From: a virus
Lineage: Duplodnaviria > Caudoviricetes
IMG/VR virus record: IMGVR_UViG_3300048897_000119
Span: 1 to 41,157 of that record
Length of the DNA: 41,157 nt
Reading direction: 5' to 3' (one strand)
The translations under genes and the position numbers were made by a program. Below are positions 4,139-39,335 of the stretch, in pieces. The first letter of the stretch is position 1, and every line of letters starts with the position of its first letter. The notes under the pieces are model-generated. The model ran no database searches. It was not told the DNA's origin and saw only the letters and a program-made list of their open reading frames with translations.

Positions 4139-4777
4139 ATGCAGTTAGCAGCACGTCAAGAACGTCGCCGTCGAAGCTCACCACGCTCTACGCGTGACCG
4201 CACGATCGCGGCCATTCATATTACCTGGAAAAAGATCAGACGCGATTTGCGAGACGCAGAAGAGTCGCGAGAGCAAAGACTGGCCTTTATGGTTGGGGTG
4301 CTCAACTTAAGGCGACCGATCGCGTCTTCGCGAGATCTGACTGACAGGCAGCTTGGGAAAGTGCTGGACCGGATGCGCGAGCTCGAGAGACAGCCTGAGT
4401 TGCCAGGCGCGCAAACCATTCATGCAGTGACCGCGGAAGAATCGGCGAACACCGGAGCTGAGATCATTCACCTGGCGACGGCGGCACAAGTTGCGACGAT
4501 CGAGAAGCTGTTGGTCCACCTGGGATGGAGTCCGGAAGCGCAAGCTGGTTTCATCCAGAAAAGATTTCAGCGAACCTCACCGCGGCTGCTCACACCCACG
4601 CAGGCCAACAGCCTGACAATGATCCTGCTTAACATCGCAGCCGCAAAAGCGATCCGCGAGCGTGAGGATGTCATGCGCGTGACGCGCACCATGATTCGTG
4701 TAGAGATCCCGCAGCTGAAGCGCCGCCTGGGGATAGATCAGAAGCTGGTGGTGGAAAGAAAGGACTACGACGAATGA
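4139..4777 (+). CDS. Mu gp16/GemA (DUF1018)-like regulatory protein
   Basis: AGGAG RBS; IAAIHI...SSRDLTDRQLGKVLDRM and Q..TIEKLLVHLGW...FIQKRF...LTPTQANSL patterns; Mu-like position. Confidence 0.75.
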   Translation: MQLAARQERRRRSSPRSTRDRTIAAIHITWKKIRRDLRDAEESREQRLAFMVGVLNLRRPIASSRDLTDRQLGKVLDRMRELERQPELPGAQTIHAVTAEESANTGAEIIHLATAAQVATIEKLLVHLGWSPEAQAGFIQKRFQRTSPRLLTPTQANSLTMILLNIAAAKAIREREDVMRVTRTMIRVEIPQLKRRLGIDQKLVVERKDYDE

Positions 4778-5055
4778 GCGCGAACCGCAGAACAGAAAAG
4801 GAGTGGCCGGCACACTACAATCCTAAACCAGGCGAACTCAACGCCGCGTGGCCCACCGTCCGTACGGAAACTCTCGTCGAGTTGGTCCTGGGCGCAATCA
4901 AACGCGGCGCGGAGACGGAACGAGAGATCAAGAAAGCCACAAACCTGAAGGACCATCAGCTGAGTAACGCCCTGGCAGAACTGATCCTATGGCGCAAACA
5001 AATCACCTGCACTGTCGATGAAACCGCAGACGTTAGAAGGTATTTTCCAGTCTGA
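4774..5055 (+). CDS. putative winged-helix DNA-binding protein
   Basis: VLGAIKRGAETEREIKKATNLKDHQLSNALAEL HTH-like pattern; ATGA coupling. Confidence 0.6.
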   Translation: MSANRRTEKEWPAHYNPKPGELNAAWPTVRTETLVELVLGAIKRGAETEREIKKATNLKDHQLSNALAELILWRKQITCTVDETADVRRYFPV

Positions 5056-6852: not shown

Positions 6853-6988
6853 TTGCACGTAAGGCGAAGCTGGGCTACATTCAAAGGCCGAACATTGTGC
6901 CCTTCAACAGGGCCTGACTAAAGCACAAAAAGAAAGAGGCTCGCAGCAGCCCATCGACCCTTTGAGGTCGATGGGCTGTTTGCTTTTT
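6853..6988 (+). promoter_or_regulatory. late leader copy 1: sigma70-like promoter + small hairpin + AGAGGCTC box + terminator
   Basis: TTGCAC(6853-58)-17-TACATT(6876-81); GCCCT-tcaac-AGGGC (6899-6913); AGAGGCTCGCAGCAGCCC (6935-52); 13-bp stem 6947-59/6966-78 followed by TTTGCTTTTT. Confidence 0.8.
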
Positions 6989-7017
6989 ATCAATCATTCG
7001 AAAAGGAGAAAGGAAAA

Positions 7018-7753: not shown

Positions 7754-8341
7754 ATGATCCACTTGTTGCATTTAAGAGTTCCTCTCATGCTCATATTGAC
7801 GATTGTGTTTGTTGTGTTCTCTGCTCTCGCGTTTCCATCAGCAACGCGCGCACAAAACACGGAGGTATTTGTCGGCGCATCATTCGTCAGGGCCAATCCG
7901 CATTTCACTCGACCCGATTTTCGTTTCAACCACGATACTGATCAGATCGGTTTCGACGTGGCTATAACCGGCTACTTCGGCGACCGTCCGATCGGTCTCA
8001 CGGCTGATATCGCAGGCAGTTGGCGCAGCAAAGATCGGGCAGACTCGAGTTTGTTGACGATCATGGCTGGTCCAACAGTTAAAGTGAGGGGACATCGCGT
8101 TGAGCCGTTCGTTCACGGCCTGGTCGGTGTCGGTAGATTTGCAGCGGCGGGCCAACAGACCAGCTTCCGTTTTGACAAGAGCACTACCGGATGGGCCTAC
8201 GCTTTGGGAGGTGGTTTGGACATAAAGATAAATCGGCGGTTAGCGATCCGGCCGCTTCAGCTCGAGTATCTGTCCACACGGATACTCGAAAAGAACGTCC
8301 GGTACATGCGAGCCGCGGCCGGCATTGTGATCAGCTTCTGA
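7754..8341 (+). CDS. small outer-membrane beta-barrel protein
   Basis: Signal peptide ending ATRA|Q; alternating strands (EPFVHGLVG, YALGGGLD); C-terminal aromatic residue (GIVISF). Confidence 0.8.
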   Translation: MIHLLHLRVPLMLILTIVFVVFSALAFPSATRAQNTEVFVGASFVRANPHFTRPDFRFNHDTDQIGFDVAITGYFGDRPIGLTADIAGSWRSKDRADSSLLTIMAGPTVKVRGHRVEPFVHGLVGVGRFAAAGQQTSFRFDKSTTGWAYALGGGLDIKINRRLAIRPLQLEYLSTRILEKNVRYMRAAAGIVISF

Positions 8342-8389: not shown

Positions 8390-8653
8390 GTGACTGACCA
8401 GGGAAAACCAAGATTCAATCCGATAGTCCTGGCGCTGATTACCGGCAACCTGCAGGCTTTTGGAGTCACGCTTCAGGGCCTCGACGAAAATAGCACCGGC
8501 AGAGATGACGTCGTGGGCAATTTTCTAGTTGCCGGCTCTGAGATTCTACCGGCGTATTTGCAAAGCAATGACGGCAGGTTGGACCGTGCGCTGCTGGCAA
8601 CTTACAAGAGCATCGGCAGTTATCTCCAAGCACGCGGCATCGCAGTCTCATGA
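8390..8653 (+). CDS. hypothetical lysis-region protein
   Basis: AAGGAG RBS, GTG start, ATGA coupling. Confidence 0.65.
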   Translation: MTDQGKPRFNPIVLALITGNLQAFGVTLQGLDENSTGRDDVVGNFLVAGSEILPAYLQSNDGRLDRALLATYKSIGSYLQARGIAVS

Positions 8654-9481: not shown

Positions 9482-10078
9482 ATGCCAAGACGCCATGCAG
9501 TCGAAACCCTGCCAGCAGATCAGTTTGAATTTCTGCTAAAGGCCATCACCAATGGTGGCACCGATCGCGAGATCTCCACCAGCTTCGAAAAAGAGTTCAA
9601 TAGAAAACTCTCCAAGAGCGCCCTCCATCGCTGGCGTTCGGTGGCTGGTGATGAGCTCGCCGACAGATATCGCTTCGTGCGTTTTCAGGCCAGGCAGTTG
9701 ATTGAAGATCTCAAGGAAGAAGATGCCGACAAACATCATCTGCTTATTGCGAACATCGAGGACCGTTTACTCACGGCAGCCGGTGAGATCATTTCGCAGG
9801 ACCCGATAAAGCTGCTCGGTATTCACCAGGAAGAGAAACGCCGGCAGTTGAAAGAAAGAGAACTCGCGCTCAGGGAACGCACGCAGGCGTTCCAGGAAGA
9901 ACAAGCCCAAAAGTCGGACCAGCTACAGCACGATCGACTGAAGATCGGGGCTGATGTTTGGCACTTCATTCTTTCATATCTGTTGCAGGCTGAACCCGAA
10001 GCCGCGGACCTCCTTACTAAACACAACGAAGCGATATTGAATGGCCTCGAAGCACACCTCGAAAATCAACCTGCCTAA
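9482..10078 (+). CDS. terminase small subunit (Mu gp27/DUF3486-like)
   Basis: MPRRHAVETLP N-terminus; LSKSALHRW HTH; directly upstream of TerL. Confidence 0.8.
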   Translation: MPRRHAVETLPADQFEFLLKAITNGGTDREISTSFEKEFNRKLSKSALHRWRSVAGDELADRYRFVRFQARQLIEDLKEEDADKHHLLIANIEDRLLTAAGEIISQDPIKLLGIHQEEKRRQLKERELALRERTQAFQEEQAQKSDQLQHDRLKIGADVWHFILSYLLQAEPEAADLLTKHNEAILNGLEAHLENQPA

Positions 10079-11792
10079 AAAGCCAATCACGCGCGAAGAG
10101 TTTCGCGATCTGGCGCACCAGGCGACCGAAGCTGTTCAGCAACAGAGAGCGGCCACGCAAATTCTCGCCGAGACGCTAAGCGCGGGCCGCGCGGCATTCA
10201 CTGAAGCAGACGGCACGCGTGAGGACCGGCTGCAGCGAACGCGCGAATCCGCTCTGGAGTTTGGCCGCACTTACCTGCCTCATTTTTTCGAACAACCATC
10301 GGCGCCATTTCATTCGGCACTCGACAAGGTCATCACCGGTAACTACACCGACGACGATCTGGAGCGCTGGCGGGAGGAGTACGGCATCGAGGTGCACCGC
10401 GGAGATCCGGATCTGAATCTACTGGCGGTGCAGATTTTTCGCGGCGGCGGCAAGTCTGTCCTGGTGAACTTATGCGATCACCTGCGTCGCATCTGTCACG
10501 GTTTAGATCCTTACATCATTATCGCCGGCGACACGTTTGCGCAGGCTGGAGCCCAGCTCGAGGACATCAAGGATGAACTCGCCGGCAATGAAAAGATCCG
10601 TGCCGACTTCGGTGCGCTGAAACCTGATAAAGGAATCTGGAAGAGCGTTGAGTTACTGCAACGCCCCGATGGTCGTGTGACCTGGCGTGAGGGGCAGATC
10701 ATCACCACCAACGGCGTGCGCGTCGACGCTATCGGTCGCGGCGGCAAGATGCGCGGCCGTCGTCATGGACCACAGCGACCGACCTGCTTCACTGGAGACG
10801 ATCTCGACAATGACGAGAACGTTGTAACAAAAGAGCAGCGCGACAAAGCGTGGAACTGGATCATTAGTGCAGTTGTGCCGGCGATGGACCCGATACGCGG
10901 CAAGCTGCGCGTCATCGGCACTACCATTCATTTCGACTGTGTAATCGCTCGTGCCGTGCGTAAAACCGACGACGAAGGTCAACGCTTCTTCACTTCGATT
11001 AGTTTTCCTGCAATGCACCGTGACGACAACGGCAAACTCGAGTCAAATTGGCCGGCTCGGTTTTCAACGGACTCGCTGCTGAAGAAGCGCGCGATGCTGG
11101 GTCCGAACAAGTTCGGCGCTGAATACATGAATGATCCGCGTGATCCTGAGACGCAATTATTTAACGCGAATCGCTTCACTTACTACACGCCGCTCGAGCT
11201 CGAGGGGAAGGATCTGCGGCGCATTCTTTATGTCGACCCCTCAAAAGGCAAGAAGGGCAAAGGCAGAAAGAAGTCGGACTTTTCGGCGTTTGTGGATTTA
11301 CTGTACGACGGTGATAGCCGCATTAGCTACATTCACAACGCATACCGCAAGCGGTTGACGCCCACCGCCGCGAGAGCTGAAGTGATCGAGTGGTATCTGG
11401 ATGCGCTTAAAGGTCCCTGGCCAGTGGAGCTTTGGGTGGAAGAAAACGCGTTCGGCGACATCCTTGCCGAACACTGGCAGGACGAGCTGCGAAGACGCGG
11501 GGTCGACATTCCCGTAAGCACTCTGCTGCATTCAACAGAAAAGGCCGCTCGCATCGAGCGACACTCGACCCGCGTTGAAACGGCCGGTGTAAGGTTTCCC
11601 GATCGCTGGCAGCGCGAGGATAGACGGCCAGAGTGGTTTTCTGAGTATGAAGACTTTCCGGCTGGCAGCTTCGACGACACGATTGATGGCATTGAGTCGG
11701 CTGATCACATTGCGAGAGAAATGTCAGTCGGTAAACCGGATTTTGTTTCCAGCGGACAGAAACAATCTTTCGCGCAGGCAAAAGCCTACTAA
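10041..11792 (+). CDS. terL: terminase large subunit
   Basis: Walker A FRGGGKS, RGRR, Walker B GDDLD, IGT, nuclease YVDPS...SDFSA...FDDTID. Confidence 0.95.
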   Translation: MASKHTSKINLPKKPITREEFRDLAHQATEAVQQQRAATQILAETLSAGRAAFTEADGTREDRLQRTRESALEFGRTYLPHFFEQPSAPFHSALDKVITGNYTDDDLERWREEYGIEVHRGDPDLNLLAVQIFRGGGKSVLVNLCDHLRRICHGLDPYIIIAGDTFAQAGAQLEDIKDELAGNEKIRADFGALKPDKGIWKSVELLQRPDGRVTWREGQIITTNGVRVDAIGRGGKMRGRRHGPQRPTCFTGDDLDNDENVVTKEQRDKAWNWIISAVVPAMDPIRGKLRVIGTTIHFDCVIARAVRKTDDEGQRFFTSISFPAMHRDDNGKLESNWPARFSTDSLLKKRAMLGPNKFGAEYMNDPRDPETQLFNANRFTYYTPLELEGKDLRRILYVDPSKGKKGKGRKKSDFSAFVDLLYDGDSRISYIHNAYRKRLTPTAARAEVIEWYLDALKGPWPVELWVEENAFGDILAEHWQDELRRRGVDIPVSTLLHSTEKAARIERHSTRVETAGVRFPDRWQREDRRPEWFSEYEDFPAGSFDDTIDGIESADHIAREMSVGKPDFVSSGQKQSFAQAKAY

Positions 11793-11796
11793 CAGC

Positions 11797-12537
11797 ATGA
11801 GGCCATATTACGAGTCGCAAGGCATAACCATTTACCACGCCAGTTATCAGGAGCTCCTTCCTTCTCTTCGACCCAACAGCGTCGATCTTCTCTTAACCGA
11901 TCCGCCTTATGGCACCACTAATCTGCAATGGGATAAGCCGGTAGACTGGCGCTGGTTCTGGCCCATCATTGAACAGATTTGCAAGTGCTACGCCAATCTG
12001 GTCCTGTTTAGCTCGGGGCAGTTTACGCACACGTTGATCGCTTCCAATCGGGCGCGCTTTCGTTACGAGCTGATTTGGGAAAAGCCGATGCCGGCTGGGT
12101 TCCTCAGCGCGAATCGTCGACCGCTGCGGGCGCACGAAAACATTCTCTTGTTCAATAGGTCATACAAGCACAGCGTTTACAACCCACAGTTCGTCAAAGG
12201 CAAGATGCATATGCGCGGCAATTTAGGATCGTCGTCGGGACACTATGGAGCAGTGCGCAGAACACCAGGAATAATGACGAACAAGTATCACCCTCGCAGC
12301 ATTCTCCGCTTCAGCAAACCGCTGGGAACAAAGTCTCTGCATCCAACACAAAAGCCACTTGAACTGATGCGGTGGCTCGTGCGCAGCTACTCGCGACCAC
12401 GCCAGCAAGTGCTTGATCCATTCATCGGTTCAGGCACCACCCTGGTGGCGGCGCAAATGACCGGCCGGCGAGCGATCGGCGTCGACGTAGAAGAACGCTT
12501 TTGCGAGATCGCCGCCAATCGTCTACGGCAGCTCTGA
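11797..12537 (+). CDS. orphan beta-class N6-adenine/N4-cytosine DNA methyltransferase
   Basis: TDPPYG (motif IV) precedes HPTQKP and LDPFIGSGTT (motif I); start reassigned to ATG 11797. Confidence 0.93.
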   Translation: MRPYYESQGITIYHASYQELLPSLRPNSVDLLLTDPPYGTTNLQWDKPVDWRWFWPIIEQICKCYANLVLFSSGQFTHTLIASNRARFRYELIWEKPMPAGFLSANRRPLRAHENILLFNRSYKHSVYNPQFVKGKMHMRGNLGSSSGHYGAVRRTPGIMTNKYHPRSILRFSKPLGTKSLHPTQKPLELMRWLVRSYSRPRQQVLDPFIGSGTTLVAAQMTGRRAIGVDVEERFCEIAANRLRQL

Positions 12538-12542
12538 ATGGC

Positions 12543-12779
12543 TTAGTTCCTATTGACGGCGTTTAATTGTGCGAGTCTCTCGATCGCGTAGCTGGTGGCG
12601 TGCGCGAGCATTTGCTCAAACAACGTGGGCCATATCAAGTCAAACTCTTCGCAGCAACTATTGGGATAATGGCAAAGCCAGACGGCGAGCGTCCTCATCT
12701 TCATGTAGCTAACGAGCATCCAAAACCATTCCTGCCTGGTCGCCGCAACCGCGCTTTCAGCAACATCGTTGTCATGCAT
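12543..12779 (-). CDS. 78-aa hypothetical protein downstream of the TPR regulator
   Basis: GAAGGAG RBS 7 nt before ATG; perfect TATAAT on the minus strand at 12833-12828. Confidence 0.65.
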   Translation of the reverse strand: MHDNDVAESAVAATRQEWFWMLVSYMKMRTLAVWLCHYPNSCCEEFDLIWPTLFEQMLAHATSYAIERLAQLNAVNRN

Positions 12780-13042
12780 GCGAGGACTCCTTCAGTGTAG
12801 CTAACGTGGGAGACAGAAGGCGGGCGCATTATATTTAGATTGAAGGAGCCGAAAGCGGAAATTTTTAAGTTCCCTGCTGATCCTGATTGGCGAGAGGTAC
12901 GAAGGAGCCAGCGCGATCGACGCAGACTGTTTGCTGTGCTTGTGGTTAGAGCCACTAGCAGGAGAGATTGAAATAAAGTAACGAGTGCTGCGACATTACT
13001 CCGGAGCGACTGTCCAGCCTGCGGTTCGCCGATCTGCATGAT

Positions 13043-14503
13043 CTATTGCTTCTTAACGATCGACTTTCGTCGCACTCTTTTCTCACGCCTGGCGGGTCCG
13101 AGTGTTTTACGATGACGACCTTCGAGGATATAGCACAAACCCTGATGGGTGATTCCTAAAAGGCGGGCAGCGCGAGTAACGCTGCCGCCCGACTGGTCCA
13201 ATGCTCGGCGGATCAATCGCGCTTCGAAATGAAGCATCTCCTTTTCGAGAGAACCACCCATCAGCTCCTCGTCCTGAACGCGCTCCATGCTTTCCATTGT
13301 TTCAATAACTACGCGGACACAGCGGCGAAGCTGCTCCAGATCCGATGGCGTCGCGTAGTCGCCCAGGTGCTGATCCGCACTGTGGTATAAGGTGAGCAGC
13401 TCGCCGCTGGTAAGGTCATTCTTGATTTCTTGAATCGCGGTGAGCTGTGCGATCGCAGCCGAGCGCGAGTCACCGGCCGCGGCCGCGACTTCAGCTGCTC
13501 GTTGAAATGCTCGGCGCGCGTCAGTGCCCTTGCCGCTTCTGGCCAAGGCGATGGCCTGCGTCGTCAACGCCTCGGCCAGTAACGAGTGTTCATCACCCTG
13601 CTGCAGCGTGGTGATGGCCGCGAATGCGGCACGCTCAGCGTCCGCGAATCTCTTTTGAGCGAGAAAGACGCGGGCGCGTGTTTCATTCACCTGAGCAACG
13701 CTTCCGGAGTCCTTAAGCGAGATAAAAATTCTGCGCGCCTTGTCCAGGTGGTCCAGGGCTTCGGCGGCCCGCTCTAGTTGCAAGAGCGTAAACCCGATGT
13801 TGTTTTCTACTCGTGCCAGGTATCGGAGGTGTCCGGCATTTGCCAGGTGCATGCTCGCAGCACTGTATTCGACTAAAGCACGATCAAGGTTCTCTTCTCC
13901 GCCGAGGTTCTTATAGACGAGTGCGCGCTGCAGGTGATAGCGACCGTGACTGGCAGCATCTGAAACCTCGGCGAGCAGCGGAGCAGCTTCGTTCAAGACG
14001 GCCAAAGCATCGAGATATCTGCCCGACGAGATCTCAACGGTAGTGGCGTTGGTAAGGGTGCGTAGTTTTGTCTCCGGTGCTTGCGCTTGCGTAAGCGCCT
14101 GCTGAAACACGACGCGACCTTCGTCCAGTGCTCCCGAGCGCCAGTAACAAAGCGCGAGATCTGTTAGCGCCTCAGCGCATTTATCCGGTTGGCCCAAAGA
14201 TTCAAATAGGGTGATGCTCTCCGTTATGAGATCCCGCGCCGACTCTTGTGCTCCAGGAATCTGTCTCGCACTACCCAGCCAGCCGCATAAAGCGCCAACT
14301 CTCAACAACACCTCAGCCTGCGTATCGGGCAACAGCTGGTCGATCGCCGGCCGCTCGCCAATGTTGGTCCAGAGCTTGCCCAGCGCGGACCGCGCGCCTT
14401 CATAATCTCCAGCTCGTTCCAGGTCGCGGGCAATTTCGCAGTCTCGTCTTGCCTGCCAGTCACGGTACTGCCGAACTTCGGTGGGTTTCCTGGTAGTTTC
14501 CAT
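13043..14503 (-). CDS. TPR-repeat transcriptional regulator with C-terminal Fis-type HTH (candidate peptide receptor)
   Basis: Serial TPR-like helices (AEALTDLALCYWRSG, ARVENNIGFTLLQLE, AQVNETRARVFLAQK); C-terminal EARLIRRALDQSGGSVTRAARLLGITHQGL. Confidence 0.88.
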   Translation of the reverse strand: METTRKPTEVRQYRDWQARRDCEIARDLERAGDYEGARSALGKLWTNIGERPAIDQLLPDTQAEVLLRVGALCGWLGSARQIPGAQESARDLITESITLFESLGQPDKCAEALTDLALCYWRSGALDEGRVVFQQALTQAQAPETKLRTLTNATTVEISSGRYLDALAVLNEAAPLLAEVSDAASHGRYHLQRALVYKNLGGEENLDRALVEYSAASMHLANAGHLRYLARVENNIGFTLLQLERAAEALDHLDKARRIFISLKDSGSVAQVNETRARVFLAQKRFADAERAAFAAITTLQQGDEHSLLAEALTTQAIALARSGKGTDARRAFQRAAEVAAAAGDSRSAAIAQLTAIQEIKNDLTSGELLTLYHSADQHLGDYATPSDLEQLRRCVRVVIETMESMERVQDEELMGGSLEKEMLHFEARLIRRALDQSGGSVTRAARLLGITHQGLCYILEGRHRKTLGPARREKRVRRKSIVKKQ

Positions 14504-14520
14504 CGCAGTGCCTGTTGCTA

Positions 14521-14575
14521 ATTAGTCGGGATGCCGACTAATGATGGTATGATACGTGGGCTCAACTATTTGAGC
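14521..14575. promoter_or_regulatory. divergent promoter region with palindromic operator
   Basis: ATTAGTCGG-gatg-CCGACTAAT (14521-42); extended -10 TGgTATGAT (14545-53, +) overlapping TATCAT (-); second IR GCTCAA-ctat-TTGAGC (14560-75). Confidence 0.65.
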
Positions 14576-14618
14576 GGACTGCCTGTCGGTACGCTCCCGC
14601 TGTAGAGGACCCACACTA

Positions 14619-14849
14619 ATGAAACAACTTCGATGCATTCTCTTTGGGACCATATTGGCGCTGTCAAGCTCGACGCTCGCGTTGGGAGGGGATATGCAGG
14701 GGCCAGGCCGGAACGATCCGCCTCCGCCTCCACCTGCAGCTACGACCGAGTCGACGACGGACAGCACGCCGGCTTCGGTTGAAGAAGTTCAGCTTACGCT
14801 GCAAGACCTCGCAGAAGTACTCAGCGAAATCTTGCTGACGGTGCTCTGA
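14619..14849 (+). CDS. small secreted pro-peptide (candidate signalling peptide precursor)
   Basis: AGAGGA RBS; Sec-type signal MKQLRCILFGTILALSSSTLALG, then GDMQGPG, poly-Pro/Thr linker and amphipathic C-terminal helix. Confidence 0.8.
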   Translation: MKQLRCILFGTILALSSSTLALGGDMQGPGRNDPPPPPPAATTESTTDSTPASVEEVQLTLQDLAEVLSEILLTVL

Positions 14850-14965
14850 GACCTCATCTGGGCGAGATAAATAAATTTGCCCTTGAAGGCGCTGCTGGTG
14901 CGGTGCGCTAAAAGGTCGCCGTGTGCGCTGGGAAAGGGCAAGCGATCCTACTCTGAAAATGCCGG

Positions 14966-15109
14966 TTGTGACAACACCGGACGTGCCTTATATTACGAGG
15001 CGATTTTGAGTCTCTAAACGAGACCACTCATCGTTCATACAAAACAATCAGAGGCTCGCAGCAGCCCGCGGGAAAAGTTGAAAGGTTTCCTGGCGGGCAT
15101 TTCATTTTA
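14966..15109 (+). promoter_or_regulatory. late leader copy 2 (before portal)
   Basis: TTGTGA-17-TATATT(14989-94); GTCTC-taaac-GAGAC (15010-24); AGAGGCTCGCAGCAGCCC (15050-67); stem GCCCGC.../...GCGGGC(15093-98) then ATTTCATTTT abutting the ATG. Confidence 0.8.
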
Positions 15110-16582
15110 ATGAGCAACGACAAAATCATCGCTGCTGATGTGCTGACAGGGGAGATCCTGTCGAGCGAACGCCTGGGCAATTACATGGCCTTCGCTTACA
15201 ACCTGGGACTCACCGCATTGCCCGACGATCCCTCGTGGGCGTGGATACAATTAAAAACTAATCCGTGGCTGGCAATGGCGATCTACGAGGACCTGGAAGA
15301 GAAAGACGACAAGATCAGCTCTGATCTCGATACCCGAAAAGAAAGTGTATTGGCGAAGTCGCGCACGGTGCTGCCGGCCAGCGAGAAACGCCAGGACAGA
15401 AAGCTCGCGGACTTCATCGGCGAAACTCTCGAAGGTTACATGGGCGGCGGTGATGGTCTCCGGTTCGGTTTTGACAGCTTTTTGTGGGAAGCTCTTGACG
15501 CGATTGGGAAGGGCGTGGCGATCGGTGAGAACATCTATGAATCGGCCAACGATCGCCTCTACATCAAGAGCGTCAACTTCAAGCCGCAGTTCCTTTTCAG
15601 CTTCGGCGAAGGTGCGCTGGCAAACTATTCGACGTATGCGCTGCCTCAGACTGGACCGCTGCGTCTCCGTCCTGATGTGTTCCTCGGCGGCGTCGGATCT
15701 GGCGAACCTCTTCCGGAGCAGAAGTTCTTTGTACACACGTTTCGCTCTTACCAGGGCAATCGCTGGGGCACACCACTGTTGCGTCGCGTGTTCTGGTTGT
15801 CATGGTTCAAGCGCGCCGGCGTGAAGCAATGGCTTCGTTATCTGGAGCGTGGACCAGGCACAGTCCTGGCCCGCTATTCGGACGGTGCTTCAGCCGATGA
15901 AAAGAAGAAAGCACTGGAAGCAGCTCAGGCGCTGGCTGAAGAGATGGCGGCCGCGATCCCGAAGAAGTTTGAAGCTGAAGTCCTGGAAAACACCCGACAC
16001 GCGATGGGCAGCTCGCACAGCGAACTCGTCGACGATTACTGCAACAACGGGATCGCTCGCGTGATTCTCGGCCAAACGCTCACCAGTCGCGGCAGTGAAG
16101 GCGGAGGCTCGCGCGCGCTCGGCGAAGTGCACGAACGTGTCGCCGGACGAAAAACTGAAACCGACGCGAAGTCATTGATGCTTGCGGTAAACACGCGACT
16201 CGTGTGGCCACTGACGATCCTCAATTACGGCGTGGTTGAGCGACCCCCAATCTGGACCATTCAGTATGAGCCAGGCGCTGACATGAAGATGATGTCAGAA
16301 GTGCTCTATAAGCTGTGGCAGATGAATGTCCCGCTCGCGGTGAAACCGTTCTATCAGACCTTCCAGATTAAAGAGCCGACTGAAGGCGAAGAGGTTCTGG
16401 CACTGCCGAAAAGCAACAACGGCGCTGAGCAGGTTGATACCGAGGAAGAGGATACAAGCTTCGCTGAGAAAGGCGACGACGTAAAAAAAAAGTCCGGCAA
16501 CAGGCGATCGAAGCCGCTGAGCTCGAGCAGGGAGCGCTTCGGGAAGCTGCGCCCCTCTATGATGCGATACTCACGCGAATAA
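15110..16582 (+). CDS. portal protein (Mu gp29/DUF935 family)
   Basis: YEDLEEKD.KI.S.L..RK, G.PLLR..FW...FK, IARVILGQTLTS...GSRALGEVHERV motifs. Confidence 0.93.
   Translation: MSNDKIIAADVLTGEILSSERLGNYMAFAYNLGLTALPDDPSWAWIQLKTNPWLAMAIYEDLEEKDDKISSDLDTRKESVLAKSRTVLPASEKRQDRKLADFIGETLEGYMGGGDGLRFGFDSFLWEALDAIGKGVAIGENIYESANDRLYIKSVNFKPQFLFSFGEGALANYSTYALPQTGPLRLRPDVFLGGVGSGEPLPEQKFFVHTFRSYQGNRWGTPLLRRVFWLSWFKRAGVKQWLRYLERGPGTVLARYSDGASADEKKKALEAAQALAEEMAAAIPKKFEAEVLENTRHAMGSSHSELVDDYCNNGIARVILGQTLTSRGSEGGGSRALGEVHERVAGRKTETDAKSLMLAVNTRLVWPLTILNYGVVERPPIWTIQYEPGADMKMMSEVLYKLWQMNVPLAVKPFYQTFQIKEPTEGEEVLALPKSNNGAEQVDTEEEDTSFAEKGDDVKKKSGNRRSKPLSSSRERFGKLRPSMMRYSRE
16481..16492 (+). other. A9 run / A_AAA_AAG slippery site linking portal to gpF in the -1 frame
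   Basis: GTA AAA AAA AAG in the portal frame; the -1 frame is open from 16468 through 17469. Confidence 0.75.
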
Positions 16583-36743: not shown

Positions 36744-39335
36744 ATGATTAAGCGATTCCTTCTCACAACCCTGCTGCTGCTGCTCTGGACCACCGCGCAC
36801 GCGCAGAGCACTGTCACCTTCAAAACCGCCAACCTCCAGCACGGCATGGGCACCGATGGTGTAACAAACTACGGCCGGCAGATCACCAAGTTGATGGAGG
36901 ACAAACCGGACATCATCTTTGTGCAGGAGAGAACGACCGGCGATACAGGCTGGGACTCTCCCATGTCGAGTGCGGGTCTAGCTGAGGCGGTCTATCGAGA
37001 GAATGCGCCAGCACCCGATCAGGGCGATGGACCAGCCATTTGGTATAAATCCTCGAAAGTTACCAAGCTGCAAACGTGGTCTCACGATCTCAACACCGGC
37101 ACAAATCCGAGCTGTGGTACGGCGAATCTCGGCAACGACTGCTCGACACGAGTGACGAAGGCCGCCGTCGCAGCGAAGTTCCAATACGGCCGGTTTCGTT
37201 TTTACGTCGTCAACACGCACCTGTGCTGGTCGCTTTGCAACAACAGCACGAGCACTACCCTAAGCGTTCAGCGGGAAAACCAGATCGCCGATTTGCTTTC
37301 GTGGACAGTCACTATTACAGGCGGCGATCCAAACGTGGTGTTCGGCGGCGATTTTAACCTCGCACCTGACTCACCAAAGATCGGCGGCGGCTTTCAAAAA
37401 GACTACTTCACCGCGGCCGGCTACACCGATATGTGGAGCGCGGGAGTCAGCGCCGGCAGAGCCACAACTCCGTGGTTAGATCGCGACGCAAACGGAGTTG
37501 CTGATATGACCGTCAGCGACTCGGGGACAAATAACGTACAAACGCATGACAATCGTCGCATCGACTGGTTTTGGCTTAACACAGCCGCCACCGTTCTGAG
37601 ACTGAATACCATCAGCGTTCCCGACTCGCGCGCAACGTGCAGTGTAGCTTTGACAAGTAATCAGCCTTCGGGAAGTTCTGCTTTCAAAGAGTGTCCGAGC
37701 GTTTCGCAGTTGTGGGATATAACCAGCGATCAGGGTATTCGTGTCAGTGACCACAACTTCATTACCCTGACGCTCTCGCTGCCACCGCCCACGAGTTACA
37801 ACGTCCCGACGAACCGAACGGCTTTCCCCGAGCCCGCGCTGACTGGAGCGTTGGATTTAACTCAGCCTGGCCGAGGCGCCGGTTACACCTTTATCGACCC
37901 AACCTTTGGCACCACTATCACACGCTGCACTGACGAACACTTCTGGCCGGATGAGCCTGGCAAAAACCACATGCCGCCAGACACGGCCGAAGTGCGGTCA
38001 ATGTCCATCAACTCGACTAAGCTGTATGTAATGAACATCGAGGGCGGTGGCATCACGCCACTCGCCTGGAGCGGCTCGCCTAAGCAGTGCGTGCGCCTGG
38101 GTGACACCAGTATTGCGCGGGGCGGCATCACGTTGGTGGGTGCGATCACTGGCGGCTCTGCCCTCCCTTCGTGGTCCGGCAAGGATGATGACTATTTGTG
38201 GGGAACGAACGGCTACGAGTTGCGGCGCTTTGACTTCTCAGGCCTCACCAGTACTTCAACCAGTGTCCCATTCACTGCCGTAGCCAACTACGCGACCATC
38301 TACAACACCGTGACCGGCGGCACGCTGTCGGGCGGTGTTTGCAGTCTGGGCGTGTCCGGAGTGGCAGCGGCCAACGATTTCATCGTTACTGCAATTCAGG
38401 GCAATCAGGACGACTGGAAAAAGGCGGTTTGGTACAACACGGCCGACGGCAGCTATAAAGTGCTCGACAGCGGAGTCTCTCCAGTGCGATGGTGGTCCAG
38501 CACTACCAACAGTTGGACCAACTTCACCGGCACCACCGGCAATTGGGATATGCACAACGTCAAGATCACGAAGGAAGGGCGTTATGTGCTCATCACCGTT
38601 GCCAACACCGAGGATGACTTCGTAACGCCTGAATTCACTGGCACCGGTAACGGCTACTTTGCAGTTTGGGACACAACCAACAACACGCTCATCTTCACGA
38701 GCACGGCTTACGATGGAGGGCATCGCAGTGGCGGCGTCGGCTATCAGATCAATCAGTACGCCAATGGTAGCGATGCCAGCCAGTGGGTATTGCGGGACCT
38801 AACCAACAGCACCACCTACAACAGTCCATCGTTCCTTATTTCGCCGCTACTCAGCGACGCCAGCTCCGTGCCTCAGCACACAGCTCTTAACCCTGACTTC
38901 GACGAGCACTCCAGTTGGGAGACAGCGCGCGCCGAGGCGTTCTATCCGGCGTTCTCGTTGACGAGTCGCACTATAGCTGTTGATGGCTCGCATCCGTGGC
39001 GAGCCTGGGAGAACGAGGGTCTGGCTGTACGCACCGATGCCACAGGCAACAACTCGGTCTTTCGGTTCTTCCACACTCACTCGGCGCGGATCTTCCCGCC
39101 GCCGACGCCATACGACTACTACGGCTACTCGTTTGGGCAGATTTCTCCAGATGGCTTGTACGCGCCGTTCTCAAGCAACTGGAACTTCACCCTCACGTAC
39201 GCGACCGGCACCGATCCAAATACTGGTAACAATTGCGCTCCCAGCTGCAAGCGGATTGATACTTTTATTGCCAGCCTGCCGGCGACTGCTCCAACTGGCG
39301 TTTGCACCTGGCACACAAATCCTTCTTGCAACTAA
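36744..39335 (+). CDS. secreted EEP (exonuclease/endonuclease/phosphatase) domain protein with beta-rich C-terminal half
   Basis: Signal ending AHA|Q; TANL, DIIFVQE, VNTHL, GGDFN, RIDWFW and SDH motifs; later SPDG...FSSNW propeller-like segment. Confidence 0.82.
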   Translation: MIKRFLLTTLLLLLWTTAHAQSTVTFKTANLQHGMGTDGVTNYGRQITKLMEDKPDIIFVQERTTGDTGWDSPMSSAGLAEAVYRENAPAPDQGDGPAIWYKSSKVTKLQTWSHDLNTGTNPSCGTANLGNDCSTRVTKAAVAAKFQYGRFRFYVVNTHLCWSLCNNSTSTTLSVQRENQIADLLSWTVTITGGDPNVVFGGDFNLAPDSPKIGGGFQKDYFTAAGYTDMWSAGVSAGRATTPWLDRDANGVADMTVSDSGTNNVQTHDNRRIDWFWLNTAATVLRLNTISVPDSRATCSVALTSNQPSGSSAFKECPSVSQLWDITSDQGIRVSDHNFITLTLSLPPPTSYNVPTNRTAFPEPALTGALDLTQPGRGAGYTFIDPTFGTTITRCTDEHFWPDEPGKNHMPPDTAEVRSMSINSTKLYVMNIEGGGITPLAWSGSPKQCVRLGDTSIARGGITLVGAITGGSALPSWSGKDDDYLWGTNGYELRRFDFSGLTSTSTSVPFTAVANYATIYNTVTGGTLSGGVCSLGVSGVAAANDFIVTAIQGNQDDWKKAVWYNTADGSYKVLDSGVSPVRWWSSTTNSWTNFTGTTGNWDMHNVKITKEGRYVLITVANTEDDFVTPEFTGTGNGYFAVWDTTNNTLIFTSTAYDGGHRSGGVGYQINQYANGSDASQWVLRDLTNSTTYNSPSFLISPLLSDASSVPQHTALNPDFDEHSSWETARAEAFYPAFSLTSRTIAVDGSHPWRAWENEGLAVRTDATGNNSVFRFFHTHSARIFPPPTPYDYYGYSFGQISPDGLYAPFSSNWNFTLTYATGTDPNTGNNCAPSCKRIDTFIASLPATAPTGVCTWHTNPSCN

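Follow-up and report, generated by a model that had tools for sequence, protein, structure and literature searches.

Positions 12543 to 14849 of a 41,157-nucleotide stretch of viral DNA (Caudoviricetes; IMG/VR record IMGVR_UViG_3300048897_000119; the whole stretch is called the window) raise the question of whether a phage carries a peptide-signalling system outside the Bacillota, and, if so, how the signal would be made and read, and whom it would serve. Between the genes for the large terminase (terL) and the portal lie a gene for a tetratricopeptide-repeat (TPR) regulator and, divergent from it, a gene for a small exported protein. The initial annotation proposed these two, together with a 78-residue gene downstream of the regulator, as a density-sensing module, and its coordinates and descriptions of all three open reading frames (ORFs) check out. 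The reading preferred here, to which a probability of roughly 0.62 is given, is that the receptor and propeptide genes are a conserved cassette, common in Acidobacteria of Pyrinomonadaceae type and carried here as cargo of a Mu-like soil prophage, in which the exported 76-residue protein would be trimmed to the heptapeptide GDMQGPG, which would re-enter the cell, bind in the groove of the receptor and release it from its operator. The two genes are as follows.

13043 to 14503, minus strand: receptor, 486 amino acids, with about eight TPR hairpins (residues 7-407), a Fis-type helix-turn-helix (HTH, about residues 419-461) and a basic C-terminal tail
14619 to 14849, plus strand: propeptide gene, 76 amino acids, with a ribosome-binding site (AGAGGA) at 14604-14609

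The pairing of these genes recurs well beyond the window. Scanning metagenomes with the receptor (596 of 609 stretches confirmed) returned 75 loci, and 64 receptor copies, including those of the window and of a second Mu-like phage, L006, had enough upstream DNA to be scored. A divergent ORF of 55-100 amino acids with a signal-like N-terminus, the neighbour that the initial annotation expected at homologues, was present at 56 of the 64, compared with 15 of 1046 random positions. The linkage persists down to 44% receptor identity, and 52 of the 56 linked peptides are distinct; in the window the gap between receptor and propeptide genes is 115 nucleotides. The eight misses comprise one intact peptide recovered with a looser filter (L051), six frameshifted or nonsense remnants (L009 has the same sequence as L010) and one locus without any peptide gene (L058). 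Receptors whose peptide gene is broken or absent (L008 at 4630-4890, L009, L011, L019, L023 and L058) possibly represent signal-deaf-producer "cheaters", or decay.

Within the propeptide, three segments can be distinguished.

14619 to 14687, plus strand: predicted Sec signal peptide, residues 1-23, ending in A-L-G, assigned from the sequence pattern
14688 to 14708, plus strand: predicted mature signal GDMQGPG (family pattern G-[DE]-[IM]-Q-x-P-G)
14772 to 14843, plus strand: C-terminal helix, acidic-hydrophobic and conserved

The protein thus begins with a basic N-terminus and a hydrophobic core, followed by A-L-G, GDMQGPG, a poly-Pro run, a Thr/Ser linker and a predicted helix (residues 52-75, hydrophobic moment 0.35); the signal peptide was assigned on the basis of its charge, its hydropathy and the pattern at -3 and -1. 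Homologues are 71-88 amino acids long. A profile search found 130 proteins, of which 116 were kept, 13 without the core pattern and one long protein being left out. Alanine stands at -3 in 73 of the 116 (A or G at -1 was demanded by the pattern), and the segment past A-x-[AG] reads G-[DE]-[IM]-Q-[TG]-P-G and leads through a few variable residues to prolines. In 17 homologues the first heptamer recurs within the linker (at least five of seven residues), five times exactly, whereas 500 shuffles gave a mean of 0.09 and a maximum of 2. The second copies are closer to their own first copy than to those of other proteins (4.45 vs 3.21, p=0.0003). These repeats, together with the covariation with the receptor described below, support the N-terminal mature peptide that the initial annotation favoured.

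The ligand could instead be the C-terminal helix or the whole, uncleaved mini-protein; tethered to the membrane, it would act as an anti-regulator. Across the family the C-terminus keeps an L-L-x-I-F pattern, the last residue being mostly F or Y, and TPR grooves such as that of LGN, the top fold match of the receptor, bind long peptides. However, it is the N-terminal heptamer that duplicates (17 homologues, compared with 0 of 116 for the C-terminal heptamer) and that co-varies with the groove, and a signal peptide would put the C-terminus outside the cytoplasm; this alternative is very improbable. The helix could be a tether or a protease tag.

The DNA around the peptide gene holds four elements that suggest how the cassette is controlled.

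14523 to 14540, no strand assigned: TAGTC-N8-GACTA palindrome, a predicted operator spanning about -37 to -20 relative to the peptide promoter
14545 to 14553, plus strand: extended -10 (TG-n-TATGAT) of the predicted peptide promoter; its spacing to the palindrome is constant in both clades of the family
14876 to 14942, no strand assigned: hairpin-capable conserved element behind the peptide gene, in the close clade only
14945 to 14974, minus strand: predicted sigma-70 promoter TTGTCA-18-TAGGAT, pointing back across the hairpin and into the peptide gene

The palindrome is matched at nine or more of its ten positions in 25 of 34 close-clade intergenic regions, and a variant occupies the same place in the distant clade. 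At five loci (L009, L018, L035, L042 and L077; L010 repeats L009) a gene for a sigma-54 activator that has next to no sensor at its N-terminus lies behind the receptor gene, and at all five a second copy of the promoter region, with its palindrome, points at it, making this gene the best candidate target of the receptor. Behind the peptide gene, about 110 nucleotides are conserved in the close clade, in which 29 of 32 sequences carry the reverse-strand promoter, mostly as TTGTCA-17/18-TAnnAT (shuffles: mean 3.3, maximum 8); in these related sequences conservation reaches 0.92 and 0.91 in the two hexamers and 0.57 in mid-spacer. The predicted reverse start falls at the base of the hairpin, a structure that is weakly supported (z=-1.6, 2 compensatory pairs). 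Rfam gave no meaningful match for the conserved element, and its DNA pattern, too strict to match even L006, found nothing among viral contigs. The motif GTTGTGACAAC was considered as an attachment site and rejected: by eye there is no matching copy behind terminal receptors, and it reads as a -35 hexamer on both strands.

Taken together, these features suggest the following course of events. The 76-residue protein would be exported, and signal peptidase would create the N-terminus of GDMQGPG; a periplasmic protease would remove the C-terminal helix and the linker, stopping near the poly-Pro run, and the heptapeptide would be re-imported via a peptide transporter. Once in the TPR groove, it would likely cause the regulator to leave the palindrome at the peptide promoter. 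We infer that the receptor is a repressor because its site covers the -35 region of the extended -10 promoter, and relief of such repression would create positive feedback. The reverse promoter may yield antisense RNA or receptor mRNA and so sharpen the switch, comparable to PX and Anti-Q of plasmid pCF10, and the likely outputs would be the genes behind copies of the peptide promoter, for example the sensor-less sigma-54 activator. PatX/PatS-HetR of cyanobacteria differs from the cassette in that HetR is not a TPR protein and the signal travels along a filament. PatX-HetR does offer a diderm precedent for export, processing and action inside the cell: the transcription factor, which is cytoplasmic, responds to a peptide that has been exported and processed (PMC12756182). 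One locus of the family (L072, 4525-9661) has a propeptide with two motif copies and, downstream, two genes for aspartyl proteases, one with a PDZ domain, which is a candidate processing enzyme.

If the heptapeptide is read by the groove, the two should have changed together, as the initial annotation had anticipated. Among the 56 linked pairs, 43 were usable (nine truncated receptors, two off-pattern pairs and two duplicates were removed), and for peptide position 2 the top-ranked of 380 receptor columns is 198. An acidic position 2 goes with K or R at 198 in 36 of 38 pairs and a non-acidic one with I, E or T in 5 of 5, so that the charge rule holds in 41 of 43; within the xxPG group, D pairs with K and E with R in 23 of 25. 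Tree-based independent contrasts gave 5:0 (p=0.06) and 6:0 with 2 ties (p=0.03). At peptide position 4, Q accompanies Q192 in 35 of 35 pairs, and seven of the eight non-Q peptides, from about three lineages, have an altered residue 192.

Several points weigh against the preferred reading, and some of them limit these figures. Column 198 was picked post hoc from a small number of related loci. In 20 held-out pairs, which lay outside the discovery of the rule (four of their peptides were read from scan output), the charge rule held in 17 and D-K/E-R pairing in 12 of 15 acidic/basic pairs (p=0.04), but six of the 20 come from wrapped 2-kb contigs, in which the peptide may be that of a collapsed neighbour. 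Within the groove, which was assigned from the TPR register and not from contacts, polar positions are better conserved than polar ones on the outer helices (0.76 vs 0.64, p=0.027). There are exceptions (L014, L067/L068, L069, L019, L017, L031, L077, L028 and L008); peptide position 5, which varies most in the close clade, lacks a clear partner in the groove; and tandem copies at L030 and L031 whose receptors are identical over residues 101-300 carry different peptides. Specificity is thus not one-to-one. The conservation of the C-terminal helix is left unexplained by a heptapeptide signal, and GDMQGPG, at 661 Da, would have to cross the outer membrane to reach other cells. Lastly, Rgg2, an activator, and Rgg3, a repressor, share one site overlapping the -35 region (PMC3509411), so the position of a site cannot tell repression from activation.

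Perhaps the peptide never leaves its producer: held in the periplasm by the helix as a tether, it would report export or envelope-protease status, or act as a timer, and not sense density. The diderm host, the conserved hydrophobic C-terminal helix and the mass of the peptide would suit such an autocrine sensor. The 88 distinct heptamers among the 116 homologues, with receptors that co-vary, are better suited to private channels, and the broken or absent peptide genes at seven of the 64 receptor copies to listening to others, which leaves the autocrine sensor unlikely.

The family falls into two clades with different surroundings. The distant clade (about 50-55% identity) is mostly one syntenic locus with genes for a radical SAM protein and a methyltransferase, and the close clade adjoins XRE, receiver, ECF, transposase and conjugation genes. 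A reading of the distant clade as a pathway for a ribosomally synthesised and post-translationally modified peptide was discarded, as the radical SAM gene is convergent, scores below all family cut-offs and is absent from the close clade. Head-to-tail tandem units of about 2 kb occur at 21 of 50 close loci compared with 0 of 26 distant loci. By eye, and with two rows relabelled as junctions, the basic C-terminal tail is lost in 17 junction copies and kept in 25 terminal copies; tailed and tail-less receptors occur together on a 4.68-Mb contig and on a 506-kb contig. Such arrays, with their homogenised copies and broken peptide genes, would also be left by a self-amplifying passenger that signals nothing and owes its conservation to recent spread and gene conversion. 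This deserves next to no credence, since the distant-clade locus, single-copy and syntenic, keeps the motif, the operator and the covariation.

The arrays (L008, L014, L026, L030, L031 and the wrapped contigs of about 2 kb) combine tail-less junction receptors and homogenised TPR cores with differing peptides. At L014 (1-3600) the cassette lies beside genes for ArdC, NikA and a coupling protein of a conjugative element; at L012 (1337-2578) it is beside a ComM-like gene and at L047 (3-722) near dprA.

What kind of protein is the receptor? It matches TPR_12 (E=5e-18) and TPR_2 in Pfam, with HTH_8 at residues 426-456, and its model (predicted local distance difference test score 86.8) consists of helices that form a solenoid to about residue 407, with an HTH at the C-terminus; HTH_8 is C-terminal in 20 of 20 family members scanned. 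Of 7999 candidates scored in a search with the receptor, 3369 reached E<=0.001, generic TPR proteins among them; for the best 120, identity is 62-73% across almost the entire length. No RRNPP receptor was found among 25 PDB profile matches, and no RRNPP-specific Pfam family among the 14 matches of the window protein or the best 25 of 56 matches of the alignment. In a fold search Rap appeared only at ranks 31 and 35, below the eukaryotic LGN at the top, and a BFVD search returned generic TPR proteins only. A close parallel is a TPR-sensor sigma-54 enhancer-binding protein, P0269 (TPR-AAA+-HTH-GGDEF), whose identity to the receptor is 44% in the TPR region and 54% in the HTH; its AAA+ domain is absent from the receptor. 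The receptor of L072 has an added receiver domain (TPR-HTH-receiver). From these comparisons the sensor is modular, and the Fis HTH is likely derived from an enhancer-binding protein; the receptor looks like a TPR-AAA+-HTH activator minus its AAA+ domain. A receptor without AAA+ cannot itself activate sigma-54.

In its manner of working, the cassette can be set beside the RRNPP systems Rap-Phr, NprR-NprX, PlcR-PapR, Rgg-SHP, PrgX and AimR-AimP, with which it shares a life on mobile elements. The RRNPP signature has five points and describes a small Sec-type propeptide of 10-100 amino acids beside a TPR receptor of 250-500 (PMC10075063); here there are a 76-residue propeptide, a predicted Sec signal, a receptor within that size range, and adjacency. 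Judged by sequence features, the cassette would work like RRNPP on all five points and yet fall outside the family, because architecture, homology, host and pheromone position differ. According to PMC9765709, RRNPPA receptors have an N-terminal HTH or three-helix bundle, whereas the HTH here is C-terminal and of Fis type, bearing out the different DNA-binding domain that had been suggested; and the pheromone is usually the C-terminus of the propeptide, whereas here it would be N-terminal, followed by poly-Pro and a hydrophobic helix. RRNPPA hosts are Bacillota, in contrast to the diderm, probably acidobacterial, host here. RRNPPA peptides re-enter through Opp and bind in the TPR groove; for the cassette, covariation supports such a mode of action indirectly. 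Other features are shared: Phr propeptides can contain internally duplicated pheromones, like the heptamers of the cassette (PMC11343458), and rgg2/3 and shp2/3 are divergent, with the operator over the -35 region (PMC5167397 and PMC3509411), so the divergent layout does not, as had been thought, set the cassette apart. In pCF10, prgX and prgQ are likewise divergent receptor and peptide genes, and PX, opposite prgQ, drives transcription across the peptide transcript, yielding Anti-Q and prgX mRNA (PMC3181467, PMC5552905). The cassette differs in that its reverse promoter and RNA are predicted only, no second peptide is known for it, and no factor-independent (U-tract) terminator comparable to IRS1 was called on the peptide strand between 14850 and 14980.

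Whom does the cassette serve in the phage? The window is a provirus record that CheckV rates 49% complete; it encodes Mu-type portal, F, gp36, gp37, GemA and Com proteins and a contractile tail. No repressor or transposase was identified among the window ORFs scanned, so the early region of this phage is probably missing. The named receptor homologues are from Pyrinomonadaceae and the Atlas clusters mostly from Acidobacteriota, which points to a Pyrinomonadaceae-type acidobacterium as the host, a Blastocatellia-type host in line with the similar pairs that the initial annotation mentioned for Blastocatellia. Two further elements matter here.

12543 to 12779, minus strand: 78-residue resident phage gene with its own ribosome-binding site and -10, outside the cassette
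14966 to 14994, plus strand: predicted phage promoter of the portal operon, TTGTGA-17-TATATT, overlapping the reverse -35 and present in a cassette-free phage

The block between terL and portal had been taken as a single interruption. The receptor and propeptide genes (about 2 kb) are indeed an insert, but the DNA methylase gene and the 78-residue gene are resident; both are also found in the terL-portal interval of related phages that have no cassette. In L006, whose portal is 81% identical, the cassette occupies the same site as in the window. L084 (portal 61%) and L086 (45%), partial records that are 46% and 27% complete, have the order methylase, 78-residue homologue, portal, without a cassette, and L084 shares with the window phage both the -10 of the 78-residue gene and the portal promoter. 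The simplest history consistent with these gene orders is that the cassette was gained in the common ancestor of the window phage and L006.

The 78-residue gene, preceded by AAGGAG (12792-12787) and TATAAT (12833-12828), had been put forward as an effector in the manner of AimX. Its homologues in the two cassette-free phages, 51% and 44% identical, occupy the same place, and none of the 76 other receptor loci carries one; because it occurs without the cassette and is missing from those loci, it is a resident phage gene and not the effector.

The cassette resembles arbitrium (AimR-AimP-AimX) in being a phage-borne TPR regulator with an exported peptide and a conserved non-coding element behind the peptide gene. 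It might, accordingly, set lysis, lysogeny or late output, by read-through from the peptide promoter into the portal operon or through an operator in the missing early region, about half of the phage being absent from the record. In L006 it has the same position. The peptide gene points the same way as the head genes, and the head operon might be affected because the reverse -35 of the cassette overlaps the portal -35. Against such a decision, the 78-residue gene and the portal promoter predate the cassette, the two related phages lack it at the site, and a late-leader hairpin separates the promoter overlap from the portal. Unlike arbitrium, the cassette lies in the packaging region, outside any immunity region and not beside a repressor; the ORF resembling AimX is unrelated to it, and its family is mostly non-viral. 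The 41-kb window, which probably lacks the early region, holds no second operator: the cassette site scores 21.3 and the next best 9.4, with shuffled maxima of 8.3-16.6 (a palindrome with one mismatch at 8424 was discounted, as it lies inside a reading frame and outside the top position-weight-matrix scores). An arbitrium-like decision is, on balance, distinctly unlikely, and the lysis/lysogeny role of the initial annotation is unsupported. Most likely the cassette regulates itself in the window phage and joins the peptide network of the host.

Carriage by viruses is rare. Three scans found one other viral contig; annotated phages gave no match, plasmids one weak match, and a single-protein scan of genome contigs five generic TPR matches (23-34% identity). 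A horizontal origin could not be argued from composition, the third-position GC content of the cassette being that of the phage. Probably, the cassette is a moron, an RRNPP-like signalling unit of Acidobacteriota that arose by convergence. The full picture, in which an independently evolved Gram-negative system combines a TPR-Fis receptor derived from a sigma-54 activator, an exported N-terminal heptapeptide whose position 2 carries a charge code, a convergent-transcription switch and diversification by tandem arrays, and in which Mu-like prophages sense lysogen density to gate the head operon or manipulate the host network, is unlikely as a whole.

Cytoplasmic TPR receptors for re-imported peptides have been described for Bacillota and their mobile elements. 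A literature search found no description of such receptors in Acidobacteriota, a phylum that is dominant in soil and mostly uncultured, although the supplementary tables of the RRNPP survey could bear on novelty. With GDMQGPG predicted as the ligand and K198 as the specificity residue, and with an operator and two promoters named, peptide signalling in a diderm and its phage becomes testable; if true, it would likely be a case of convergent evolution from a sigma-54 activator scaffold.

The late-leader hairpin has a counterpart elsewhere in the window: GAGGCTCGCAGCAGCCC followed by a terminator-like hairpin stands ahead of both the lysis region (6936-6990) and the portal operon (15051-15110), with a similar stretch in L006 and L084, and may serve the phage as an element of late antitermination or attenuation. 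In the lysis region of the cassette-free phages (L084, 4680-5129; L086, 2297-2689) an ORF resembles, by eye, a lone receiver domain. The terL genes (window 10041-11792, L084 6795-8639, L086 4321-6156) cannot be aligned in these otherwise syntenic phages, except that the last 43 residues align with L084; the large terminase appears to have been exchanged. The methylase gene (11647-12537) probably starts at 11797 (residue 51), where its homologues begin. Elsewhere in the window, a gene for an outer-membrane beta-barrel protein (7754-8341) adjoins the SLT gene, and a protein of 863 amino acids with an endonuclease/exonuclease/phosphatase domain is encoded among the tail genes (36744-39335).

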